Below are positions 3,027-17,956 of a DNA stretch of 64,000 nt, one piece after another. The position numbers and the translations under genes are program-made. Below the pieces are notes generated by a model, which had not been told where the DNA came from, ran no database searches, and saw nothing but the letters and a program-made list of their open reading frames with translations. Within the stretch, counting starts at the first letter, position 1, and each line of letters begins with the position of its first letter. The stretch is from Kiritimatiellia bacterium (GTDB lineage Bacteria; Verrucomicrobiota; Kiritimatiellia; RFP12; UBA3636), in the NCBI GenBank assembly GCA_017481725.1, contig JAFUOX010000043.1, positions 12,757 through 76,756 on the forward strand, in the 5' to 3' direction.

Positions 3027-3308
3027 GAGACATGAACGCTATTTTTATAGTGTCGTAGCTTATTTTCTCATTGCGTGGGAAATACCCTTTTGCCGCATTT
3101 TAGTTTTTTCATAATGCTCTTAAGCTGAAAATCATATAATTTTAGTCTTGCTCCTGCATAAATCAAGATAGTTCCCTAAAAACTTTGTTACAATTCCATC
3201 GATTATTATAAATTTGTGGTTGCATAATAATTTTATTTGTTTTATAATTATTATGTAATTTTTAATAAACATTTATATTGATTTGATTTTTTTACACAAG
3301 GAGTTGCT

Positions 3309-4670
3309 ATGTTTTTATGGTTCCCTAAATTTGGTCAGTGTGTTGCTGAACCGCAAATTGTTTTAGCTGGTAATTCTCGCTGGACGGAGCGTCATATTCA
3401 GTGTATTTGGTATGATTCATCATTACGTCCGGAACGGCTTCGTACGGATACAGGTGAAGAATTTTCTATAATAAACCCTGGTGTGTGGAATCTAGAAGAA
3501 GGTCCAGATTTTCTTGGTGCAGAAATTTTATTTCATAAAACAGGAAAAATCACAAGAGGAGATATTGAGCTCCATGTGCGCCCGTCTGATTGGGTTGCTC
3601 ATCGCCATTCTGGAGATGAAAATTATTCAAATCTCATAATGCATGTATGTTGGTTTGGTGGCTATAATTCTGCACCTTTGCCTCCACATATTTATAATGT
3701 TACCCTTAAAGAGCAGATTTTAATTCAGCAGAGCTTTTCTTTTGAAAAAATTGCTGTTGCTGCCTATCCTCATGCTGTATTAAATGAGGCTCCTCCATGT
3801 AGCGAACATGTAGCAGCTTTATCGAAAGAACAGCTCTACAAATTGTTGCTTACATCTGGTGAGAGTAGATTGCGCAGAAAAAGTGCAGATATGGCTGCAC
3901 GATATAGCGAGGTAGGGGATATTCGTCAGCTTTTTCAAGAGGAGTTTTTTGCATCCCTTGGATATAAGAATAATAAAGAGCAATTTAGGTCTGTTGCAAG
4001 GTTGCTACCTAATCATGAGCTTTGCTCAATACATAATCCAAAGGAACGATATGCTATTTTACTTGCAGTGTCGGGTTTATTGAAAAATATGGATAAGTCA
4101 CCAATGTATCGGGAATTGTGGGATTTGGCTTGGCAGCATGGCTATGCAGATGCAATTGACGCATTTCCTCTTGAATGGAAAACAAATTCTCTTCGACCAC
4201 AAAATAAACCAGAAAATCGGATGCTGCTTGCCGCATGGCTTTTTGGTGGAAAAAATCGCCTCTTTGATGACATTTTTGCTCTACCACGAAAATCTTCTAA
4301 GGGTTGGTGGCGAGCTCTCAAAAATTTGTTTAAGGAGGCTCTTAGGGATGCAGAACTATATGGTATTCGTCCAACCTTAGGTACTGCTAGAATTGTAAGC
4401 ATCGCAATAAACGTCATTATCCCAATGCTTGCTATCCAAGATCCAGATTGTATACAACTTGCAGAGGCTTTGCCAGGAGAAGCGGATAATTCCATAATAA
4501 GAGAGACAGCATTTCGGCTCATAGGAAGAGATCATAATCCCGCAATTTATAGTGGTGCCGCTTTATACCAACAAGGGCTAATAGAAATTTGGTATAGATT
4601 TTGCCTTACAGCTCGTGTAGGATGTTCAAATTGTGTCTTGGCAAAATCCCTAAAAGAATGTAAAATATAG
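3309..4670 (+). CDS. DUF2851-family protein
   Basis: An AAGGAG RBS precedes the start. The N-terminal pattern ERHIQCIW..GPDF..GDIELHVRPSDWVAHRH..YSNLIMHVCW matches my recollection of DUF2851. Confidence 0.6.
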   Translation: MFLWFPKFGQCVAEPQIVLAGNSRWTERHIQCIWYDSSLRPERLRTDTGEEFSIINPGVWNLEEGPDFLGAEILFHKTGKITRGDIELHVRPSDWVAHRHSGDENYSNLIMHVCWFGGYNSAPLPPHIYNVTLKEQILIQQSFSFEKIAVAAYPHAVLNEAPPCSEHVAALSKEQLYKLLLTSGESRLRRKSADMAARYSEVGDIRQLFQEEFFASLGYKNNKEQFRSVARLLPNHELCSIHNPKERYAILLAVSGLLKNMDKSPMYRELWDLAWQHGYADAIDAFPLEWKTNSLRPQNKPENRMLLAAWLFGGKNRLFDDIFALPRKSSKGWWRALKNLFKEALRDAELYGIRPTLGTARIVSIAINVIIPMLAIQDPDCIQLAEALPGEADNSIIRETAFRLIGRDHNPAIYSGAALYQQGLIEIWYRFCLTARVGCSNCVLAKSLKECKI

Positions 4671-4713
4671 TGCAATTTTTTGTTGAAGTTTATTATAATT
4701 TGAAGGCAATGGG

Positions 4714-5202
4714 ATGAGCAAGGAGACAAAGGAATTTCCTGTAACACCAGGTATCCGTGTGCTACGTGCAGCAAAGGTGCAATATGAGGCACATAAATAT
4801 ACCTACGAGGAGCATGGCGGCACTGGCCAATGTGCTGAGGTTTTGGGTATTGATGAGCATTATGTGATTAAAACCATTGTTTTAAAAACAGATGCAGGCA
4901 AACCATTTATTGTTCTTATGCATGGAGATAATGAGATTTCTCAAAAGGAAATGGCTCGAATCTTAAAGGTAAAGCATACAGAGCCATGCACAGTAGATGA
5001 AGCACAGAAGTATAGTGGATACTTTTGTGGAGGAATAAGCCCATTTGGATTTCGTAAGCAAGTGCCGGTGTATGCACAAAAAACAATTTTTGATTTAGAT
5101 TGGATTGTAATAAATGGTGGTGCAAGAGGCTTTTTCGTTAAAATAAAGCCTGAGATTTTGAAGACAGTTGTAAATGCAGTGCCTGTTGATGCAGAACAAT
5201 AG
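4714..5202 (+). CDS. ybaK: Cys-tRNA(Pro)/Cys-tRNA(Cys) deacylase, YbaK/EbsC family
   Basis: About 160 aa with VIKTIVLK, SGYFCGGISPFG and IVINGGARG motifs of the YbaK editing domain. Confidence 0.8.
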   Translation: MSKETKEFPVTPGIRVLRAAKVQYEAHKYTYEEHGGTGQCAEVLGIDEHYVIKTIVLKTDAGKPFIVLMHGDNEISQKEMARILKVKHTEPCTVDEAQKYSGYFCGGISPFGFRKQVPVYAQKTIFDLDWIVINGGARGFFVKIKPEILKTVVNAVPVDAEQ

Positions 5203-5214
5203 GAATTAATAATT

Positions 5215-9706: not shown

Positions 9707-10923
9707 GTAAAAAAAATGACAATGTAGTTGAGGATTGCAGCAAATATATCATGAACACTTATGCAAGGGGTGAAGAAACTCCTGTGCTTGTTAGTGGTAA
9801 GGGTTGCCGCGTTAAGGGTAGCAATGGCAATCAGTATTTAGATTTTACATCTGGTATTGCAGTTCAGAATATCGGTCACTCAAATCCAAAATATATCGAG
9901 AAGGTTACTGCACAGCTTGAAAAGATGGTTCACTGCTCTAATCTTTTCTACAATGCAAATCAGGTTGCTCTAGCAAAGAAGCTTGTACAGCTAAGCGGTC
10001 TTGATGGTAAGGCTTTCTTCTGCAATTCTGGTGCAGAGGCAAATGAAGCAATGATTAAGCTAGCTCGCCTATATGGTAGCGAGAGTGGTCGCTATGAAAT
10101 CATTTGCATGAAAAATTCATTCCATGGTCGCACAATGGGTACTCTTTCTGCAACAGGACAGAGCAAGGTTCAGAAGGGCTATGACCCACTTCTACTTGGC
10201 TTCTCTTTTGCTGAGTTTAATGATATCGCTTCAGTAAAGGAGCAGATCACAGATAAGACAGTTGCAATTCTTCTTGAGCCAGTACAGGGTGAGGGTGGTG
10301 TGCTTCCTGCAACTCCTGAGTTTATGGAAGGCGTGCGTGCACTTTGCGATGAGCATAATCTTCTAATGCTTTGCGATGAGGTTCAGTGCGGTATGGGTCG
10401 CACAGGTAAGTGGTTTGGTTGGCAGAATTATTCTGTTGCTCCAGATGCTTTCTCTCTAGCAAAGGCTTTGGCTGGTGGTATCCCTATGGGTGCTATGATT
10501 GCTTCAAAGAAGGTTGCTGATGTATTTGTTCCGGGTTCACATGCTTCCACATTCGGTGGTGGTGCATTGGCTAGCGCAGCAGCTCTTGCTGTTATTGAGA
10601 CAATCGAGGATGATAAGCTTCTTGATAACACAAACAAGATGAGCGAGCTATTTATGACAGGCCTACAGCAGTTTGCAGACAAGTACGATCAGGTGCTTGA
10701 AATTCGCGGCTGTGGTCTTCTAATCGGCATGGTTGTTGAGGATGGCTTTGCAAAGAAGATTGTTGATGAACTTTGCTTTGGTGGCTTGCTAGCATGCGTT
10801 GCTGGACCAAATGTTGTTCGCTTCCTACCTCCTCTATCATTGACAGATAGAGACCTAGATGAGGCTTTGGATATGATCGATGAAGCTCTTGAAATCGTAT
10901 TCGAACCAGAGGAAGAAGCATAA
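9703..10923 (+). CDS. argD: acetylornithine aminotransferase
   Basis: Class-III aminotransferase motifs are present: FCNSGAEANE, DEVQCGMGRTGK and the PLP Lys context SLAKALAGG. Confidence 0.9.
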   Translation: MSKKNDNVVEDCSKYIMNTYARGEETPVLVSGKGCRVKGSNGNQYLDFTSGIAVQNIGHSNPKYIEKVTAQLEKMVHCSNLFYNANQVALAKKLVQLSGLDGKAFFCNSGAEANEAMIKLARLYGSESGRYEIICMKNSFHGRTMGTLSATGQSKVQKGYDPLLLGFSFAEFNDIASVKEQITDKTVAILLEPVQGEGGVLPATPEFMEGVRALCDEHNLLMLCDEVQCGMGRTGKWFGWQNYSVAPDAFSLAKALAGGIPMGAMIASKKVADVFVPGSHASTFGGGALASAAALAVIETIEDDKLLDNTNKMSELFMTGLQQFADKYDQVLEIRGCGLLIGMVVEDGFAKKIVDELCFGGLLACVAGPNVVRFLPPLSLTDRDLDEALDMIDEALEIVFEPEEEA

Positions 10924-10971: not shown

Positions 10972-12210
10972 ATGGCTCTAACAGTTGATGAAATGAAGGG
11001 ACGCAAGATTGGTATCTGCGTATCTGGTGGTTTGGATAGTAAAACAATCGCAATTCGTTTGCGTGAGGCAGGAGCAGATGTGCTTTGCTTTACAGCTGAT
11101 CTTGGTCAGCCAGACGAGAAGGATATTCGCGATGTTCAGAAGAAGATGGCTCCTTGTGGAGTTGATACTGTTATCGTTGATGTTCGCGAGGAAATGGCAG
11201 AGGCTTGCTTCAAGACAATTATGGCAGAGGCAACCTATGATGGCGGCTACTGGAACTCAACTGGTATTGGTCGTGCTGTAACAGTTCGCAAGATTGTTCT
11301 TGAGATGAAGAAGCACGGAATCTCAACACTTGTTCATGGTGCAACAGGTCGCGGTAACGATCAGATGCGTTTCGAGCGCTACACAAATCAGTTTGCTCCA
11401 GAGATGACAGTTTATGCTCCATGGCGTGATGCAAAGCTTCTAGAGGAATTCCCTGGCCGTACTCAGATGTGCGAGTATCTAGCAAAGTATGATATTGTTG
11501 CATTCCCTGGTGGTAAGAAGCGCTATTCAACAGACTGCAATATCGCTGGTCTATCTCATGAGGCAGAGGACCTAGAGAGCATGGAAACAGCAATGACAAT
11601 CGTTGAGCCAACAATGGGCGTATGGCCAATGCAGGCTCCTGATGCAATTGAGTCTGTAAAGATTAAGTTTGAGAAGGGTCGTCCTGTTGCAATCAATGGT
11701 GTTGAGATGAAGCCATTTGATCTACTTGTTGAGGCAAACAAGATTGGTGGCCGCAATGGTATTGGTATGAGCCATGCTCTTGAAAACCGCATTATCGGCA
11801 CAAAGAGCCGTGGTGTTTATGAGGCTCCAGGTATGGAAATGCTTGGCAAGGCTCTACGCTATGTTTATCAGGCAATCATGGATAAACCATCAACAACATT
11901 GTTTGAGCAGCTATCTCGCTTTGTTGGTGTTCAGATCTACGATGGCAAATACTATGATTTGTCAACTCAGGCTGCTTTTGCTGCAATCGAGAAGTTTGCA
12001 GATAAGGCAACTGGTGAGGTAACTGTTGGCCTATATCGCGGCAATATCCTATTCCAGAGCTTGACTGGTGTTGAGGCTTCTCTATACTTTGAAGAGGATG
12101 CTTCTATGGAAGCAAGCGAGGGCTTGAATCCTGTAAGCTCTCAGGGCTTTGCTGAGATTCAGAGCGTTGAAGCTCGCTCAATGGCAAAGGCTGGTCACAT
12201 TAAGGCATAA
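10972..12210 (+). CDS. argG: argininosuccinate synthase
   Basis: ICVSGGLDS (P-loop-like), HGATGRGNDQMRFE and ENRIIGTKSRGVYE motifs. Confidence 0.93.
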   Translation: MALTVDEMKGRKIGICVSGGLDSKTIAIRLREAGADVLCFTADLGQPDEKDIRDVQKKMAPCGVDTVIVDVREEMAEACFKTIMAEATYDGGYWNSTGIGRAVTVRKIVLEMKKHGISTLVHGATGRGNDQMRFERYTNQFAPEMTVYAPWRDAKLLEEFPGRTQMCEYLAKYDIVAFPGGKKRYSTDCNIAGLSHEAEDLESMETAMTIVEPTMGVWPMQAPDAIESVKIKFEKGRPVAINGVEMKPFDLLVEANKIGGRNGIGMSHALENRIIGTKSRGVYEAPGMEMLGKALRYVYQAIMDKPSTTLFEQLSRFVGVQIYDGKYYDLSTQAAFAAIEKFADKATGEVTVGLYRGNILFQSLTGVEASLYFEEDASMEASEGLNPVSSQGFAEIQSVEARSMAKAGHIKA

Positions 12211-12214
12211 GCAT

Positions 12215-12739
12215 ATGTTGACCGCTGAACAAGAGCAAGCAGTACGCACTTGGGCACAGGAAGGCGCGAGCTTATCTGAGATACAGACGCGCCTTGCTGA
12301 AGAATTTGATATCCATCTAAGCTATATGGACACCCGTTTTCTTGTGATGGATATCAATGCAAATATCAAGGACAAAGAAACACCTGCTCCAAAGCAGCCA
12401 GAGCCACCAGCACGTGCAGAGGCACCTGCAAGTGGTGTTGTTCATGATATTGATGCAGAGAGCGAGAGTGGGGTTGCTTCAGAGATGGAAGCAATGCCAA
12501 TGGGTGGCGCAAAGCCAGTCGAAGAGGGTGAGCTAACAATTGAGCTTAGCCGCATTCAGAAGCCAGGCTTTGCACTTTGCGGAAGCCTAGTTTTCCCTGA
12601 TGGTGAGACTGCAGAATGGGGTATCACAAATGATGGCCGCATCGCTCTTGACCCTGCCACAGAAGGCTATCGCCCAAGCCAGGAATATATTCGCCAATTC
12701 CAAATGAAGCTTAAGGCTCTAATTGAGTCTGCTTATTAA
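12215..12739 (+). CDS. hypothetical protein (N-terminal HTH-like helix bundle, P/E/A-rich linker, C-terminal beta-rich domain)
   Basis: The ATG at 12215 lies 4 nt after the argG stop. The longer 12149 start would overlap argG and is unlikely. No family recognised. Confidence 0.5.
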   Translation: MLTAEQEQAVRTWAQEGASLSEIQTRLAEEFDIHLSYMDTRFLVMDINANIKDKETPAPKQPEPPARAEAPASGVVHDIDAESESGVASEMEAMPMGGAKPVEEGELTIELSRIQKPGFALCGSLVFPDGETAEWGITNDGRIALDPATEGYRPSQEYIRQFQMKLKALIESAY

Positions 12740-12751
12740 AAGCGTTATTTT

Positions 12752-12780
12752 ACCTTGGATTGCCTTTGCTAATCCAAGGT
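12752..12780 (+). other. intercistronic hairpin (10-bp perfect stem ACCTTGGATT / AATCCAAGGT, 9-nt loop)
   Basis: Read directly from the sequence. No T-run follows, so it is not a canonical intrinsic terminator. It lies between the unknown gene and proC. Confidence 0.4.
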
Positions 12781-12817
12781 GAAATGTTCTATAAATCGAC
12801 ATAACATAATTTCGAGA

Positions 12818-13621
12818 ATGACTATGCCAAAAATAGGTTTTTTAGGTGCAGGTAAAATGGGTGGAGCAATCCTAGTTGCTCTAAAAAATGCAAAGGCTGC
12901 AGAAAAGCTTTATGCTTGTGATGCTTATCAACCACGCCTTGATGAGCTAAAGAAAAAATATAAGGTTCAGCCAGCAACTGCTCTTGAAGTCGTTGAAAAA
13001 TGTGATGTCGTTTTTCTTGCAGTAAAGCCTCAGGATTTGGAACCACTCCTAAAGTCTGTGGCAGAGTCTGAATTTGCTGCACATCCTCTTTACATCTCTA
13101 TTGCGGCAGGTAGAAGATTGGAGTGGCTTGAAGCTCTTCTTCCTAAAGCTGCAATTGTCCGTGCAATGCCAAACCTTGCAGTGTCTGTTGGTGAGGGCAT
13201 GACAGGTTATGCTATCGGCTCAAAGGTAAAGAAATCTCAAGCCGCTCTCGCAGGAAAGCTTCTTGCACTAACAGGTAAAGCTGTATTGCTCCAAGAGGAG
13301 CAACTTGATGCAGTTACAGCTCTCAGTGGCTCCGGTCCCGCATTTATGGCTTATGTTCTCCAAGCAATGATTGATGGAGGAGAAGCTCTAGGTCTTCCTG
13401 CTGATGCAGCAAAAACATTAGCACTCCAAACAATGCTCGGAACAGCAAAGGTATTGCAATCCTCCGAAGGTTCAATTTCCGATTTTATTAAAGCAGTAAC
13501 ATCTGCAAAAGGAACCACGGCTGAGGGACTTGCTGTTCTTGAAAAATCTGCAATCAAAGGCACAATGAAGAGAACTCTCTCTGCTGCTGCACGCCGCAGT
13601 AAAGAGCTAAGCAAAATTTAA
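12818..13621 (+). CDS. proC: pyrroline-5-carboxylate reductase
   Basis: IGFLGAGKMGGAI Rossmann motif and SAKGTTAEG near the C-terminus. The start is at ATG 12818 or 12824; the GTG at 12779 lies inside the hairpin. Confidence 0.88.
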   Translation: MTMPKIGFLGAGKMGGAILVALKNAKAAEKLYACDAYQPRLDELKKKYKVQPATALEVVEKCDVVFLAVKPQDLEPLLKSVAESEFAAHPLYISIAAGRRLEWLEALLPKAAIVRAMPNLAVSVGEGMTGYAIGSKVKKSQAALAGKLLALTGKAVLLQEEQLDAVTALSGSGPAFMAYVLQAMIDGGEALGLPADAAKTLALQTMLGTAKVLQSSEGSISDFIKAVTSAKGTTAEGLAVLEKSAIKGTMKRTLSAAARRSKELSKI

Positions 13622-16604: not shown

Positions 16605-17705
16605 ATGGGCTTGGGGTTACGCAACAAGAATATAAACTATGATGAAGGTTGGTTTTTTGTCACTTTTCAAGTGGCACAAAACAAAAGCCTTCTTGGTGCT
16701 ATTGTAGAAGAACAATGTATCCTCAATGAACTAGGAAATGCGATTGAAAAAAATATTCAAAAGCTCCCCCAAATATATAAAAATGTATATATAGACAAGC
16801 ATGTGGTGATGCCCAATCACATACACATGATAGTGAAACTGTCTGGGTCTGGGTCTGGGGGCAGAGCCCCAGACCCACGATATAATGTAGGTGTGGGATA
16901 TCGCTCTTCTTCTAATTCCGCTGGTTTGGGGCATTGCTCTTCTAATACCGTGGGGTTGGGGCTCAGCCCATCTTCTAATATCGTGGGTTTGGGGCTCTGC
17001 CCATCTTCTAATATCGTGGGTTTGGGGCTCCGCCCCCAAACCCAAACCAAAAATTTATCTCAGATTATTGGCGGCTTTAAAAGCTATACCTCTAACATTT
17101 ATTTAAAACTAAAAAAACAAAATAAATGCCCAGATATAGGTGCAAAACTATGGCAGTCAAGCTACTATGATGTTCTTATTTCAAATCATCAAAAACTTGA
17201 AAATATAAGAAATTATATAGAAAATAATCCTAGAAATTGGGAGCAGGATCGCTTCGGTTCAGTCACGCAATTTTCTCTTGGCAATATTGAGCTACTAAAT
17301 GAGCCTCTAACTGCATTTGTTGCAAGTGAAGGACTAAATGACGGCAAGATGCAATGTATAAAAAAAGGTTTTGAAAAAGATTCTGCTCAAAAGAATAATC
17401 CTGTAATTTCAACCTTTAGTAGCTATGAAGAAAGATGCGTTTTAAATAAATGCTTGGCACATAAACGCCCCATAATAAAGGTGTGCCCTGGCGGGATTCC
17501 TTCTAATCTAGAGCAAAATCTAAAGCAAGCAGTAGATGAAAATAGATGCTTATTAATTTCTCCTATCGGAGCAGAAGTAGGAATAAACAAGCAAAGAGCA
17601 AATGTGTGTAACTTTTATGTTTTAAAAAATGCTGAGGAAATATGGACAGGACACATTCGCCCAGGTGGAAGCCTAGAATCAATTTTGAAAGGAATTAGCC
17701 TATGA
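16605..17705 (+). CDS. IS200/IS605-type Y1 HUH transposase-like protein (RAYT-like) with an internal repeat insertion and an extra C-terminal domain
   Basis: GWFFVTFQ, HUH motif MPNHIHMIV (H72/H74), IIGGFKSYTS, and the catalytic-Tyr region LWQSSYYDVLI...IRNYIENNPRNW. About 65 aa of G/S/L/P repeats separate HUH from the next helix. About 150 extra aa follow NPRNW. Confidence 0.7.
   Translation: MGLGLRNKNINYDEGWFFVTFQVAQNKSLLGAIVEEQCILNELGNAIEKNIQKLPQIYKNVYIDKHVVMPNHIHMIVKLSGSGSGGRAPDPRYNVGVGYRSSSNSAGLGHCSSNTVGLGLSPSSNIVGLGLCPSSNIVGLGLRPQTQTKNLSQIIGGFKSYTSNIYLKLKKQNKCPDIGAKLWQSSYYDVLISNHQKLENIRNYIENNPRNWEQDRFGSVTQFSLGNIELLNEPLTAFVASEGLNDGKMQCIKKGFEKDSAQKNNPVISTFSSYEERCVLNKCLAHKRPIIKVCPGGIPSNLEQNLKQAVDENRCLLISPIGAEVGINKQRANVCNFYVLKNAEEIWTGHIRPGGSLESILKGISL
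16841..17043 (+). repeat. GC-rich in-frame repeat block: (GTCTGG)x3, hairpin 1, four 30-33-bp tandem units, hairpin 2
   Basis: Hairpin 1 is GGGTCTGGGG-GCAGAG-CCCCAGACCC (16851-16876). Tandem units start at 16908, 16938, 16971 and 17004 (tcttctaatatcgtgggtttggggctc..). Hairpin 2 is GGGTTTGGGG-CTCCGC-CCCCAAACCC (17018-17043). Confidence 0.85.
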
Positions 17706-17903
17706 AGCATTTATGTATAGTTTCAGACCAATTAATGCCAAATTTTTCTTCTGTTGTATAAAAACCTACCATACAACACAATGTTAGGCTTCATGAAATT
17801 TTTAGAATATACTGCATTTATTGTGTTCCATTAGCTAATAGTTTTATCATTTTGGGAATATGGGCATTGAGTTTATTTTTCGGTGTATTTTTATTTTGAC
17901 ACG

Positions 17904-17956
17904 TTCTTTTTTCCAACAAATTTCAAGTTGCACTTGAAATTTGTTGGAAAAAAGAA
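17904..17956. repeat. perfect 25-bp inverted repeat with a 3-nt spacer
   Basis: TTCTTTTTTCCAACAAATTTCAAGT-TGC-ACTTGAAATTTGTTGGAAAAAAGAA, checked base by base. Confidence 0.9.

Follow-up and report, generated by a model that had tools for sequence, protein, structure and literature searches.

We report a cluster of palindromic repeats lodged within a gene for a single-stranded DNA (ssDNA) endonuclease in a 64-kb stretch of DNA from a Kiritimatiellia bacterium (contig JAFUOX010000043.1; the whole stretch is referred to as the window). The gene, on the plus strand at 16605-17705, encodes 366 residues that combine an N-terminal Y1 HUH endonuclease of the TnpA(REP) type, also called REP-associated tyrosine transposase (RAYT), with a C-terminal DprA-like domain, and we call it HUH-DprA. 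We consider it highly probable that the GC-rich block inside HUH-DprA is a cluster of repetitive extragenic palindrome (REP)-type elements, of the class recognized by TnpA(REP)/RAYT-class Y1 HUH enzymes, that sits in frame in the gene of its own enzyme. The phenomenon itself is already published (Quentin et al. 2018), and what is added here is a new lineage and a new two-domain host protein.

Anatomy of the repeat block

The block spans 219 bp (16836-17054), is free of stop codons, and codes for residues 78 to 150. It begins directly after the HUH strand MPNHIHMIV (residues 69-77; 16809-16835) and ends directly before the helix that starts with LSQIIGGFKS (residues 151-160; 17055-17084). The GC fraction is 0.52 to 0.57 within the block versus 0.27 to 0.36 elsewhere in the gene. 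A preliminary description of this DNA had reported a GC-rich, hairpin-bounded, in-frame repeat block in a RAYT-like HUH gene, and all of its elements were found where they had been placed. The same description held that the region is open in three further frames, and indeed three additional open reading frames (ORFs) cross the block, one on the plus strand (16891-17106) and two on the minus strand (16731-17045 and 16817-17050). Moreover, the block folds far more stably than shuffled sequence, with z = -5.9 as DNA and z = -7.7 as RNA.

Two hairpins with 10-bp stems bound the repeats, GGGTCTGGGG-GCAGAG-CCCCAGACCC at 16851-16876 and GGGTTTGGGG-CTCCGC-CCCCAAACCC at 17018-17043. When the pattern GGGTYTGGGG-N6-CCCCARACCC was searched with up to 2 mismatches, these two sites were the sole matches in 64 kb, and 100 shuffles gave none. 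Among the window's perfect hairpins with a stem length of 9 bp or more, they are the most GC rich (stem GC, 0.73 and 0.64), and no other shares their sequence type. Each hairpin corresponds to a REP in the structural sense, that is, a GC-rich hairpin whose 5' foot is a GT[AG]G tetranucleotide. REP 1, located by a footed-hairpin scan, lies on the minus strand at 16853-16878 and consists of a GTGG foot, the stem arm GTCTGGGG, a CTCTGC loop, and the stem arm CCCCAGAC, with the flank ATTATATC (16879-16886) preceding the foot on that strand. REP 2 occupies 17016-17041 of the plus strand and consists of a GTGG foot, the arm GTTTGGGG, a CTCCGC loop, and the arm CCCCAAAC. The segment 16853-16885 is the core of the repeat unit in inverted copy, and thus the two full hairpins represent one REP in each orientation.

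Between the two REPs, all on the plus strand, lie a spacer (16887-16907), a degenerate 30-bp unit (16908-16937; TCTTCTAATTCCGCTGGTTTGGGGCATTGC), two 33-bp units (16938-16970 and 16971-17003), and a last unit that includes the complete REP 2 (17004-17041). Each 33-bp unit is half a REP: it carries the flank TCTTCTAATAYC, the GTGG foot, a 5' arm of the form GKTTGGGG, a CTCNGC loop, and CCA, and it lacks the 3' arm. The consensus reads TCTTCTAATATC-GTGG-GTTTGGGG-CTCNGC-CCA, such that just the first bases of the 3' arm remain. Units differ from ATCGTGGGTTTGGGGCTC by 0 to 2 mismatches, the foot is preceded by TATC in every one of them, and Tandem Repeats Finder (TRF) reported a 33-bp period repeated 3.0 times at 16938-17035 (93% matches; score, 168). 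TRF also reported a (GTCTGG)x3.2 microsatellite at 16841-16859 on the plus strand, which is the iterated distal arm (GTCTGG/CCAGAC) of the minus-strand REP 1. Thus TRF, the pattern search, and dissection of the units together reproduced the (GTCTGG)x3 tract, the two hairpins, and the 30/33/33/33-bp units of the preliminary description. We conclude that the half-unit of REP 2 has been amplified in tandem and that the GTCTGG of REP 1 has been iterated.

REP 1 and REP 2 form an inverted pair with their feet facing each other. Inverted orientation, a short spacer, and the capacity to form one long hairpin together constitute the arrangement of REP doublets (REPINs) and of bacterial interspersed mosaic elements (BIMEs). 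In the minimum-energy DNA fold, REP 1 together with its flank is paired to one of the direct units over about 25 bp (16859-16884 with 16977-17002). Searches of the window for other signals were negative: Rfam at an E value of 1 or below returned only spurious microRNA-like matches, nearly all of them on a different, AT-rich palindrome, no terminator-like sites were found, and promoter-like sites occurred at shuffle expectation.

Variation and conservation of the hairpins

The block differs in length between close relatives, as expected of the in-frame variable-number tandem repeat (VNTR) that the preliminary description had offered as a possibility. Six close orthologous loci were available from independent NCBI, ENA, and Logan assemblies. 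The four that reach past the gene (L001-L003, L004, and L088) have a type II secretion system pseudopilin gene on one side and, on the other, an AAA_14/DUF4143 ATPase gene adjacent to rplM-rpsI, and a further one, L087, has the same upstream side and ends just past the gene. Outside the block these loci are 95 to 97% identical to the window at the DNA level, and within it they carry 5, 4, 3, 2, or 1 units, always with the frame kept. Block lengths are 258, 219, 186, 156, 117, 129, and 117 nt, each divisible by 3, and the identical 5-unit array was found in three different samples. Whole-unit differences in copy number (1 to 5 units), lengths that preserve the frame, and recovery of one array from three samples mean that the block is a real in-frame VNTR, one that alters the length of the encoded loop. 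The GTCTGG tract varies too, with one additional GGGCCT/GGGTCT unit in L001 and fewer copies in L087 and in the more distant orthologues L085 and L086. One orthologue on a Logan contig, P0121, shifts frame exactly past the last hairpin and its C-run (…GLGLCP|KPKPKIYLRLL…) and is truncated at 166 residues, which could be an assembly error or a real shift at the C5 tract.

The inverted pair is older than the tandem array. REP 1 stems and foot are identical in seven of seven orthologues, down to 76% protein identity, and only the loop changes; the two most diverged of these, L085 and L086 (88% and 76% protein identity, respectively, outside the block), retain both stems and foot unchanged. At the position of REP 2, these two loci carry a full hairpin in which flank, foot, and loop are the same but the stem is another: GTAG-GCCTGAGG-CTCTGC-CCTCAGGT in L085, a compensatory stem change, and GTGG-GGCAGAGG-CTCTGC-CCTCTGTC in L086. 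The window and L086 are 73.6% identical in nucleotides over the whole gene, and at conserved residues they use identical codons in 53.5% of cases gene wide versus 9 of 9 in REP 1. These comparisons show that the inverted REP pair was already present in the ancestor of this Kiritimatiellia lineage and that the tandem amplification is recent. In the wider family, the loop that joins the HUH strand to the next helix is 12 residues long in 75 of 114 proteins and 18 to 86 residues long in 32 (full range, 10 to 86). Thus, alignment of orthologues, which the preliminary description had proposed as a check for absence of the block, finds a basal 12-residue loop in most of them, and the block is an insertion rather than an ancestral domain.

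Hairpins of the form TATC-GT[AG]G-stem-loop-stem recur inside orthologous genes that are 43 to 100% identical to that of the window (the window itself, L001, L004, L085-L088, L097, L006, L098, and L099). They sit both in the HUH loop and in the interdomain linker. TATC-GTRG is kept in all, and the loop is of the CTCYGY type, with CACYGC in L098 and a 5-nt CTYGT in L099. The 13 distinct instances that were aligned contain 10 distinct 8-bp stems, with changes on both sides in six of the eight stem pairs and 15 further pair types. As scored on these instances, which were picked by a scan that requires pairing, covariation was 0.777 versus 0.211 ± 0.042 in shuffles (none of 500 reached 0.777), and registers slid along the alignment scored 0.17 or less. 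Invariant positions were confined to the flank (TC-GT-G) and the loop (T-C-G). With stems that covary, a foot and loop that are fixed, and synonymous sites that are frozen, the alignments show hairpins that appear to be kept at the DNA level.

A wider survey indicated that the association reaches well beyond this clade. Eighty loci were listed from the GTDB genome collection, the best of them 38 to 47% identical and the window's own species not among them; among the matches listed, at least 64 related loci from many phyla have a recognizable HUH-to-helix loop, and the densities that follow refer to these 64. Hairpins with a GT[AG]G foot occur at 9.0 per kb in the loop, 0.84 per kb in the rest of the gene, 0.36 per kb in the 1-kb flanks, and 0.10 per kb further out, so that they are enriched about 90-fold in the loop over more distant DNA (9.0 versus 0.10 per kb). 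At least one footed hairpin was present in the loop of 46 of the 64. We note that the preliminary description had suggested an element that resembles REPs or BIMEs and belongs to the substrate class of the enzyme itself. Canonical REP anatomy, a family that extends down to 43% identity, the enrichment among the listed loci, and the precedent of Quentin et al. (2018) all support that suggestion, with the substrate class assigned by analogy.

Some relatives carry copies outside the gene as well. Upstream of its gene, the Chloroflexia relative L033 has an array of nine 16-nt half-REPs in tandem (GTAGAGACGCCCCGCC) that a complete hairpin with a double foot brings to a close (L033 9618-9776), and it repeats the same design with 21-nt units in the HUH loop (10219-10287). 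Half-REP units closed by one complete hairpin, found at both places, repeat the architecture of the window twice and point to a recurrent generating process. In L031, six double-foot REP copies (GTAGAGACGCGATGCATCGCGTCTCTAC) are regularly spaced at about 180 nt some 2 kb downstream of a single-domain relative (12043-12950), and extragenic hairpin copies are found in L070 and L059 too. A copy of the loop upstream of the gene in L016 proved to be a partial gene duplication and not a REP. Among the two-domain proteins, the sole extragenic copies seen are in L098, 3.6 kb downstream of the gene. There, three REPs of the clade's family (TATC-GTRG-stem-CACYGC-stem, in the orientations minus, minus, plus) occupy an intergenic position at 10685-10790, just past a CRISPR array. 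Finally, a scan of JGI metagenomes for CGTGGGTYTGGGG-N6-CCCCARAC gave six matches, on five unrelated high-GC contigs and one low-GC contig with a G/C tract, none of them beside an HUH gene, and the scan is uninformative on dispersal.

The host protein and its genomic neighborhood

The N-terminal domain has the Y1 HUH fold. Pfam Y1_Tnp matches the ORF at an E value of 4.5e-10 in two stretches, one on each side of the block, and the best family is NCBIfam NF047646 (REP_Tyr_transpos, REP-associated tyrosine transposase, an equivalog; 51.2 bits; E value, 1.2e-13). Foldseek placed the domain with IS608/ISDra2 TnpA and Escherichia coli TnpA(REP) (2vih, E value of 1.2e-5; 4er8, E value of 2.4e-4; root mean square deviation, 3.1), and a profile searched against the PDB matched 2xm3 (E value, 1e-4) and 4er8 (E value, 6e-4). 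In the profile alignment, MPNHIHMIV corresponds to vmPdHvHll of ISDra2 TnpA, and N71, H72, and H74 are invariant across 108 relatives. Also invariant in these relatives are L151 and K159 of the helix that follows the insert, W183 of an LWQ motif (Q184 is conserved in at least 90%), and Y204 and N208 of YIENNP (17214-17231, plus strand; P209 is conserved in at least 90%). Y204, the presumed catalytic tyrosine, aligns to the YI of ISDra2 TnpA. The protein is 100% identical to P0001, a database entry annotated "transposase [Kiritimatiellae bacterium]." The label RAYT appears approximate only, given a score below the equivalog cut-off and the extra DprA-like domain.

The C-terminal domain comprises residues ~220 to 366 (17262-17702, plus strand) and is a DprA-like Rossmann domain. 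No Pfam family matched these ~150 residues, and the domain was identified by structure and PADLOC alone: Foldseek returned ShosA (8zva; E value, 1.8e-4) and DprA (3uqz; E value, 3.7e-4), and PADLOC matched PsyrA to residues 223 to 345 (E value, 4.5e-5). Relatives share the motifs VISTFTS, CPGG, and GINKQRAxWCN in this part. As the C-terminal residues have no Pfam match yet have a DprA/ShosA-like fold and a PsyrA match, we conclude that the protein is a Y1-HUH/DprA-like fusion, which has not been described among the TnpA(Y1) subclasses. An AlphaFold2 model has a mean predicted local distance difference test score (pLDDT) of 79.5, with both domains mostly above 90. In contrast, the insert (residues ~80 to 148), between the strand of residues 72 to 79 and the helix of residues 151 to 171, has a pLDDT of 27 to 57, and the model shows it as a predicted disordered surface loop, β3-αC in the nomenclature of Quentin et al. 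The interdomain linker, from DRFG to VISTFTS, is a second length hot spot, with 45 to 124 residues in the two-domain proteins P0012 to P0120. Other lineages, as at L095 9260-10190 and L097 1900-2120, carry GC-rich repeats of their own in this linker, following the KKxGxxP loop, and at both ends of the protein; examples are ISGCGAGRDSGP, GAEARHPDR, and LATAPGG. The terminal repeats are probably flanking arrays read into the ORF.

Several orthologues lie among CRISPR-Cas genes. A complete type III-B operon is found in the region L098 1-10350 in the order Cmr2-Cmr3-RAMP-Cmr5-RAMP-RAMP-[HUH-DprA]-393-aa ORF-Cas1-Cas2, followed by a six-repeat CRISPR array. L097 (302-3566) reads RAMP-[HUH-DprA]-Card1, L086 (2-4544) reads [HUH-DprA]-Card1-Cas1-Cas2 with a two-repeat mini-array, and L085 (2-1866) reads RAMP-[HUH-DprA]. 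No cas genes were found near the orthologue in L095, L096, L099, or L100, and a gene of the HUH-DprA type goes unmentioned in the 2025 CRISPR-Cas classification paper. The REPs have no evident similarity to the repeats of the linked arrays (a 35-nt repeat in L086 and a 37-nt repeat in L098). In the window, the start codon of a 19-codon ORF (MKHLCIVSDQLMPNFSSVV*; 17702-17761, plus strand) overlaps the HUH-DprA stop codon, and its MKHLCIVSDQLMPNF is identical at 14 of 15 positions to the N terminus of the CARF nuclease Card1 that follows the orthologue in L086 (E value, 4e-10). This match marks the short ORF as a Card1 remnant, left over from a CRISPR accessory module that has been lost. The AAA_14/DUF4143 ATPase gene is closely preceded by a perfect 25-bp AT-rich palindrome (17904-17956; TTCTTTTTTCCAACAAATTTCAAGT-TGC-...), which is single copy, occupies the same place in L001, L004, and L088, and may be an operator. 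In L096, a diversity-generating retroelement (bAvd and reverse transcriptase, with Lcl_C-domain targets; 3214-5210) is directly upstream of the orthologue P0081, an adjacency that is probably coincidence.

Comparison with known systems and competing explanations

How the block relates to known systems is clearest for TnpA(REP) subclass 2.4, which corresponds to RAYT group 4 of Bertels. Quentin, Siguier, Chandler, and Fichant (2018; BMC Genomics 19:475; PMC6006769) described REPs inserted in frame between β3 and αC in members of this subclass and modeled the insertion region as a peripheral loop. The protein of the window matches the whole motif signature of the subclass (NH[IFV]H, WQ, and YIxNNP as MPNHIHMIV, LWQ, and YIENNP) and shares its insertion site, between the β3 HUH strand and αC. 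The insert is likewise made of short repeats and GT[AG]G-footed hairpins, keeps the frame, is hypervariable in length and sequence (loops of 10 to 86 residues in the 114 relatives), and is modeled as a peripheral loop off the active site. It differs in several respects, however. Subclass 2.4 proteins are core only, with a median of ~194 residues and no tail domain, whereas the protein of the window has 366 residues and a DprA-like C terminus; the gene of the window has no REPs within 1 kb and none elsewhere in 64 kb; and its half-REP unit is amplified as a 33-bp VNTR. The feet of the window's REPs face inward, whereas in most single-domain relatives at the listed loci they face outward.

The REP/BIME system and REPtron of E. 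coli (Ton-Hoang et al. 2012; Messing et al. 2012, PDB 4ER8) offer a functional parallel. There, TnpA(REP) requires a GTAG foot and a hairpin, cuts beside REPs and in linkers, and catalyzes strand exchange, and the number of tandem BIMEs differs between strains, for which enzyme-driven amplification was proposed as a model (Ton-Hoang et al. 2012; PMC3333891). Shared with the window are the conserved 5' GTAG/GTGG foot on a hairpin, the alternating orientation of REPs, a tandem unit number that varies per locus between strains, and a Y1 HUH enzyme that has the same fold and keeps HUH and Tyr. In contrast, E. coli has hundreds of REPs, which are extragenic and flank the gene, whereas those of the window lie within coding sequence with none elsewhere in 64 kb; E. 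coli stems carry an essential mismatch, whereas those of the window are perfect; and the E. coli protein belongs to subclass 2.2, whereas that of the window is 2.4-like. REPINs (Bertels and Rainey 2011) also consist of two inverted REPs and a spacer that can fold into one long hairpin, but they form abundant, replicating intergenic populations with group 2 and 3 RAYTs, and no such population was seen in the 64 kb of the window. Group 4 RAYTs are weakly associated with abundant flanking 16-mers (Bertels et al. 2017), which fits the low dispersal seen here.

Several observations weigh against the block being a REP cluster of its own enzyme. The hairpin and the unit were absent outside the gene in the 64-kb window and in the 10-kb flanks of the orthologous loci, and in the 64 kb the pattern that the preliminary description had proposed for a whole-genome search recovered both block hairpins and no extragenic copy. 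Translations of the four open frames, searched against 5.8 billion protein clusters, placed the unit in no other protein; the nine matches all belonged to the same family and included one frameshifted orthologue. Moreover, no footed hairpins of the family lie within 1 kb of the window gene, and thus there is no REPtron. The score against NF047646 lies below that family's curated cut-off of 80 bits. Instances for the covariation analysis pair at 100% by construction, which limits the independent evidence to the conserved flank, the loop, and the diversity of stems. Finally, the conservation of synonymous sites is based on 9 codons, and the copy numbers derive from short-read metagenome assemblies.

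The lack of further copies in 64 kb or in other proteins, a unit number that varies as in any VNTR, and a loop that AlphaFold2 models as disordered would all suit an ordinary low-complexity loop on a slippage-prone minisatellite, with hairpins that are incidental and unrelated to the substrate of the enzyme. We regard this as very unlikely, as a hairpin with a GT[AG]G foot recurs, its flank and loop unchanged and its stems compensatory, in orthologues with unrelated loop peptides, footed hairpins are enriched at this site across phyla, and relatives also carry them outside the gene (the upstream array of L033, L031, L070, and L098). In addition, conservation is higher at the nucleotide than at the protein level. 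More improbable still is a promiscuous palindromic mobile element that landed here in frame by chance, in the manner of Rickettsia palindromic elements (RPEs) or intragenic REPs. Such in-frame palindromic insertions, tolerated in loops, are cataloged in many unrelated genes, including those of a Planctomycetes-Verrucomicrobia-Chlamydiae (PVC) group relative, Opitutus terrae (Di Nocera et al. 2013; PMC3733652), and the block is stop-free in four of six frames. The RPEs and GTAG/CGTC REPs of that catalog decorate gene after unrelated gene, however, whereas the four-frame search found the window unit in the HUH-DprA family alone. Moreover, the interdomain linker of the same gene is a second length hot spot and other lineages have repeats of their own there and at the gene ends, which indicates a specific association with the gene.

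Retention of REP 1 across the clade with frozen synonymous sites, REPs that in this lineage appear restricted to the gene, and the frameshift of P0121 exactly past the last hairpin could instead mark a selected cis-regulatory device, by which the protein autoregulates via its own coding DNA or mRNA or by which expression is tuned or switched through the number of units and the C-run that follows REP 2. Two-thirds of family members have no insert, however, so that the insert is dispensable for protein function; no terminator or promoter signal is tied to the block; the single P0121 frameshift may be an assembly error; and continuing renewal by the enzyme would explain the conservation equally well. 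We consider such a device very unlikely. That the repeats are misassembled or chimeric is a concern raised by a short-read metagenome-assembled genome and by tandem 33-bp repeats, which are prone to collapse or expansion. The preliminary description had named assembly artifact as a danger to its claim, and it can be dismissed with near certainty: NCBI, ENA, and Logan assemblies, independent of one another, show the same architecture, 5-unit arrays are identical in three samples, the frame is preserved throughout, and the flanking DNA is perfectly collinear.

We therefore favor a REP cluster in its own enzyme's gene, and the E. coli system suggests how it could have arisen. The encoded protein would bind the hairpins around its own gene and would probably cut and rejoin them on ssDNA, as E. 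coli TnpA(REP) does. Because such an enzyme would tend to act near its own gene, copies would accumulate in and beside it, and an in-frame REP doublet would be tolerated because the loop that it encodes is disordered and lies at the surface. The doublet would be kept or renewed at the DNA level while the half-unit expands and contracts. Units may be gained and lost by slippage at the hairpins or by TnpA(REP)-type cleavage and strand exchange between neighboring units, the latter following the model that Ton-Hoang et al. (2012) proposed for the amplification of BIMEs. Both the processing of hairpins by the enzyme and enzyme-driven amplification are inferred from E. coli.

In-frame insertion of self-REPs, described in 2018 mainly for Cyanobacteria and Bacteroidetes, extends to Kiritimatiellia of the PVC group. 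Near-identical strains with 1 to 5 half-REP units and orthologues with compensatory stem changes form a natural series that could serve the study of how REP/BIME arrays are amplified, by Y1 HUH enzymes or by replication slippage. The series could also define a recognition code in which the foot TATC-GTRG and the loop CTCYGY are fixed and the stem is free. We speculate, though we think it unlikely, that the hairpins of this clade are not dispersed parasites and are instead a private, selected cis-element of an HUH/DprA fusion that is accessory to type III-B CRISPR-Cas. If so, the enzyme would recognize GTRG-footed hairpins in its own locus, and in L098 also past the CRISPR array, for cis loading or regulation, which would link HUH-type ssDNA processing to adaptation, interference, or mobility of the cas module. 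Ultimately, the broader lead may be the HUH-DprA fusion that recurs in type III-B CRISPR-Cas operons, rather than the block.

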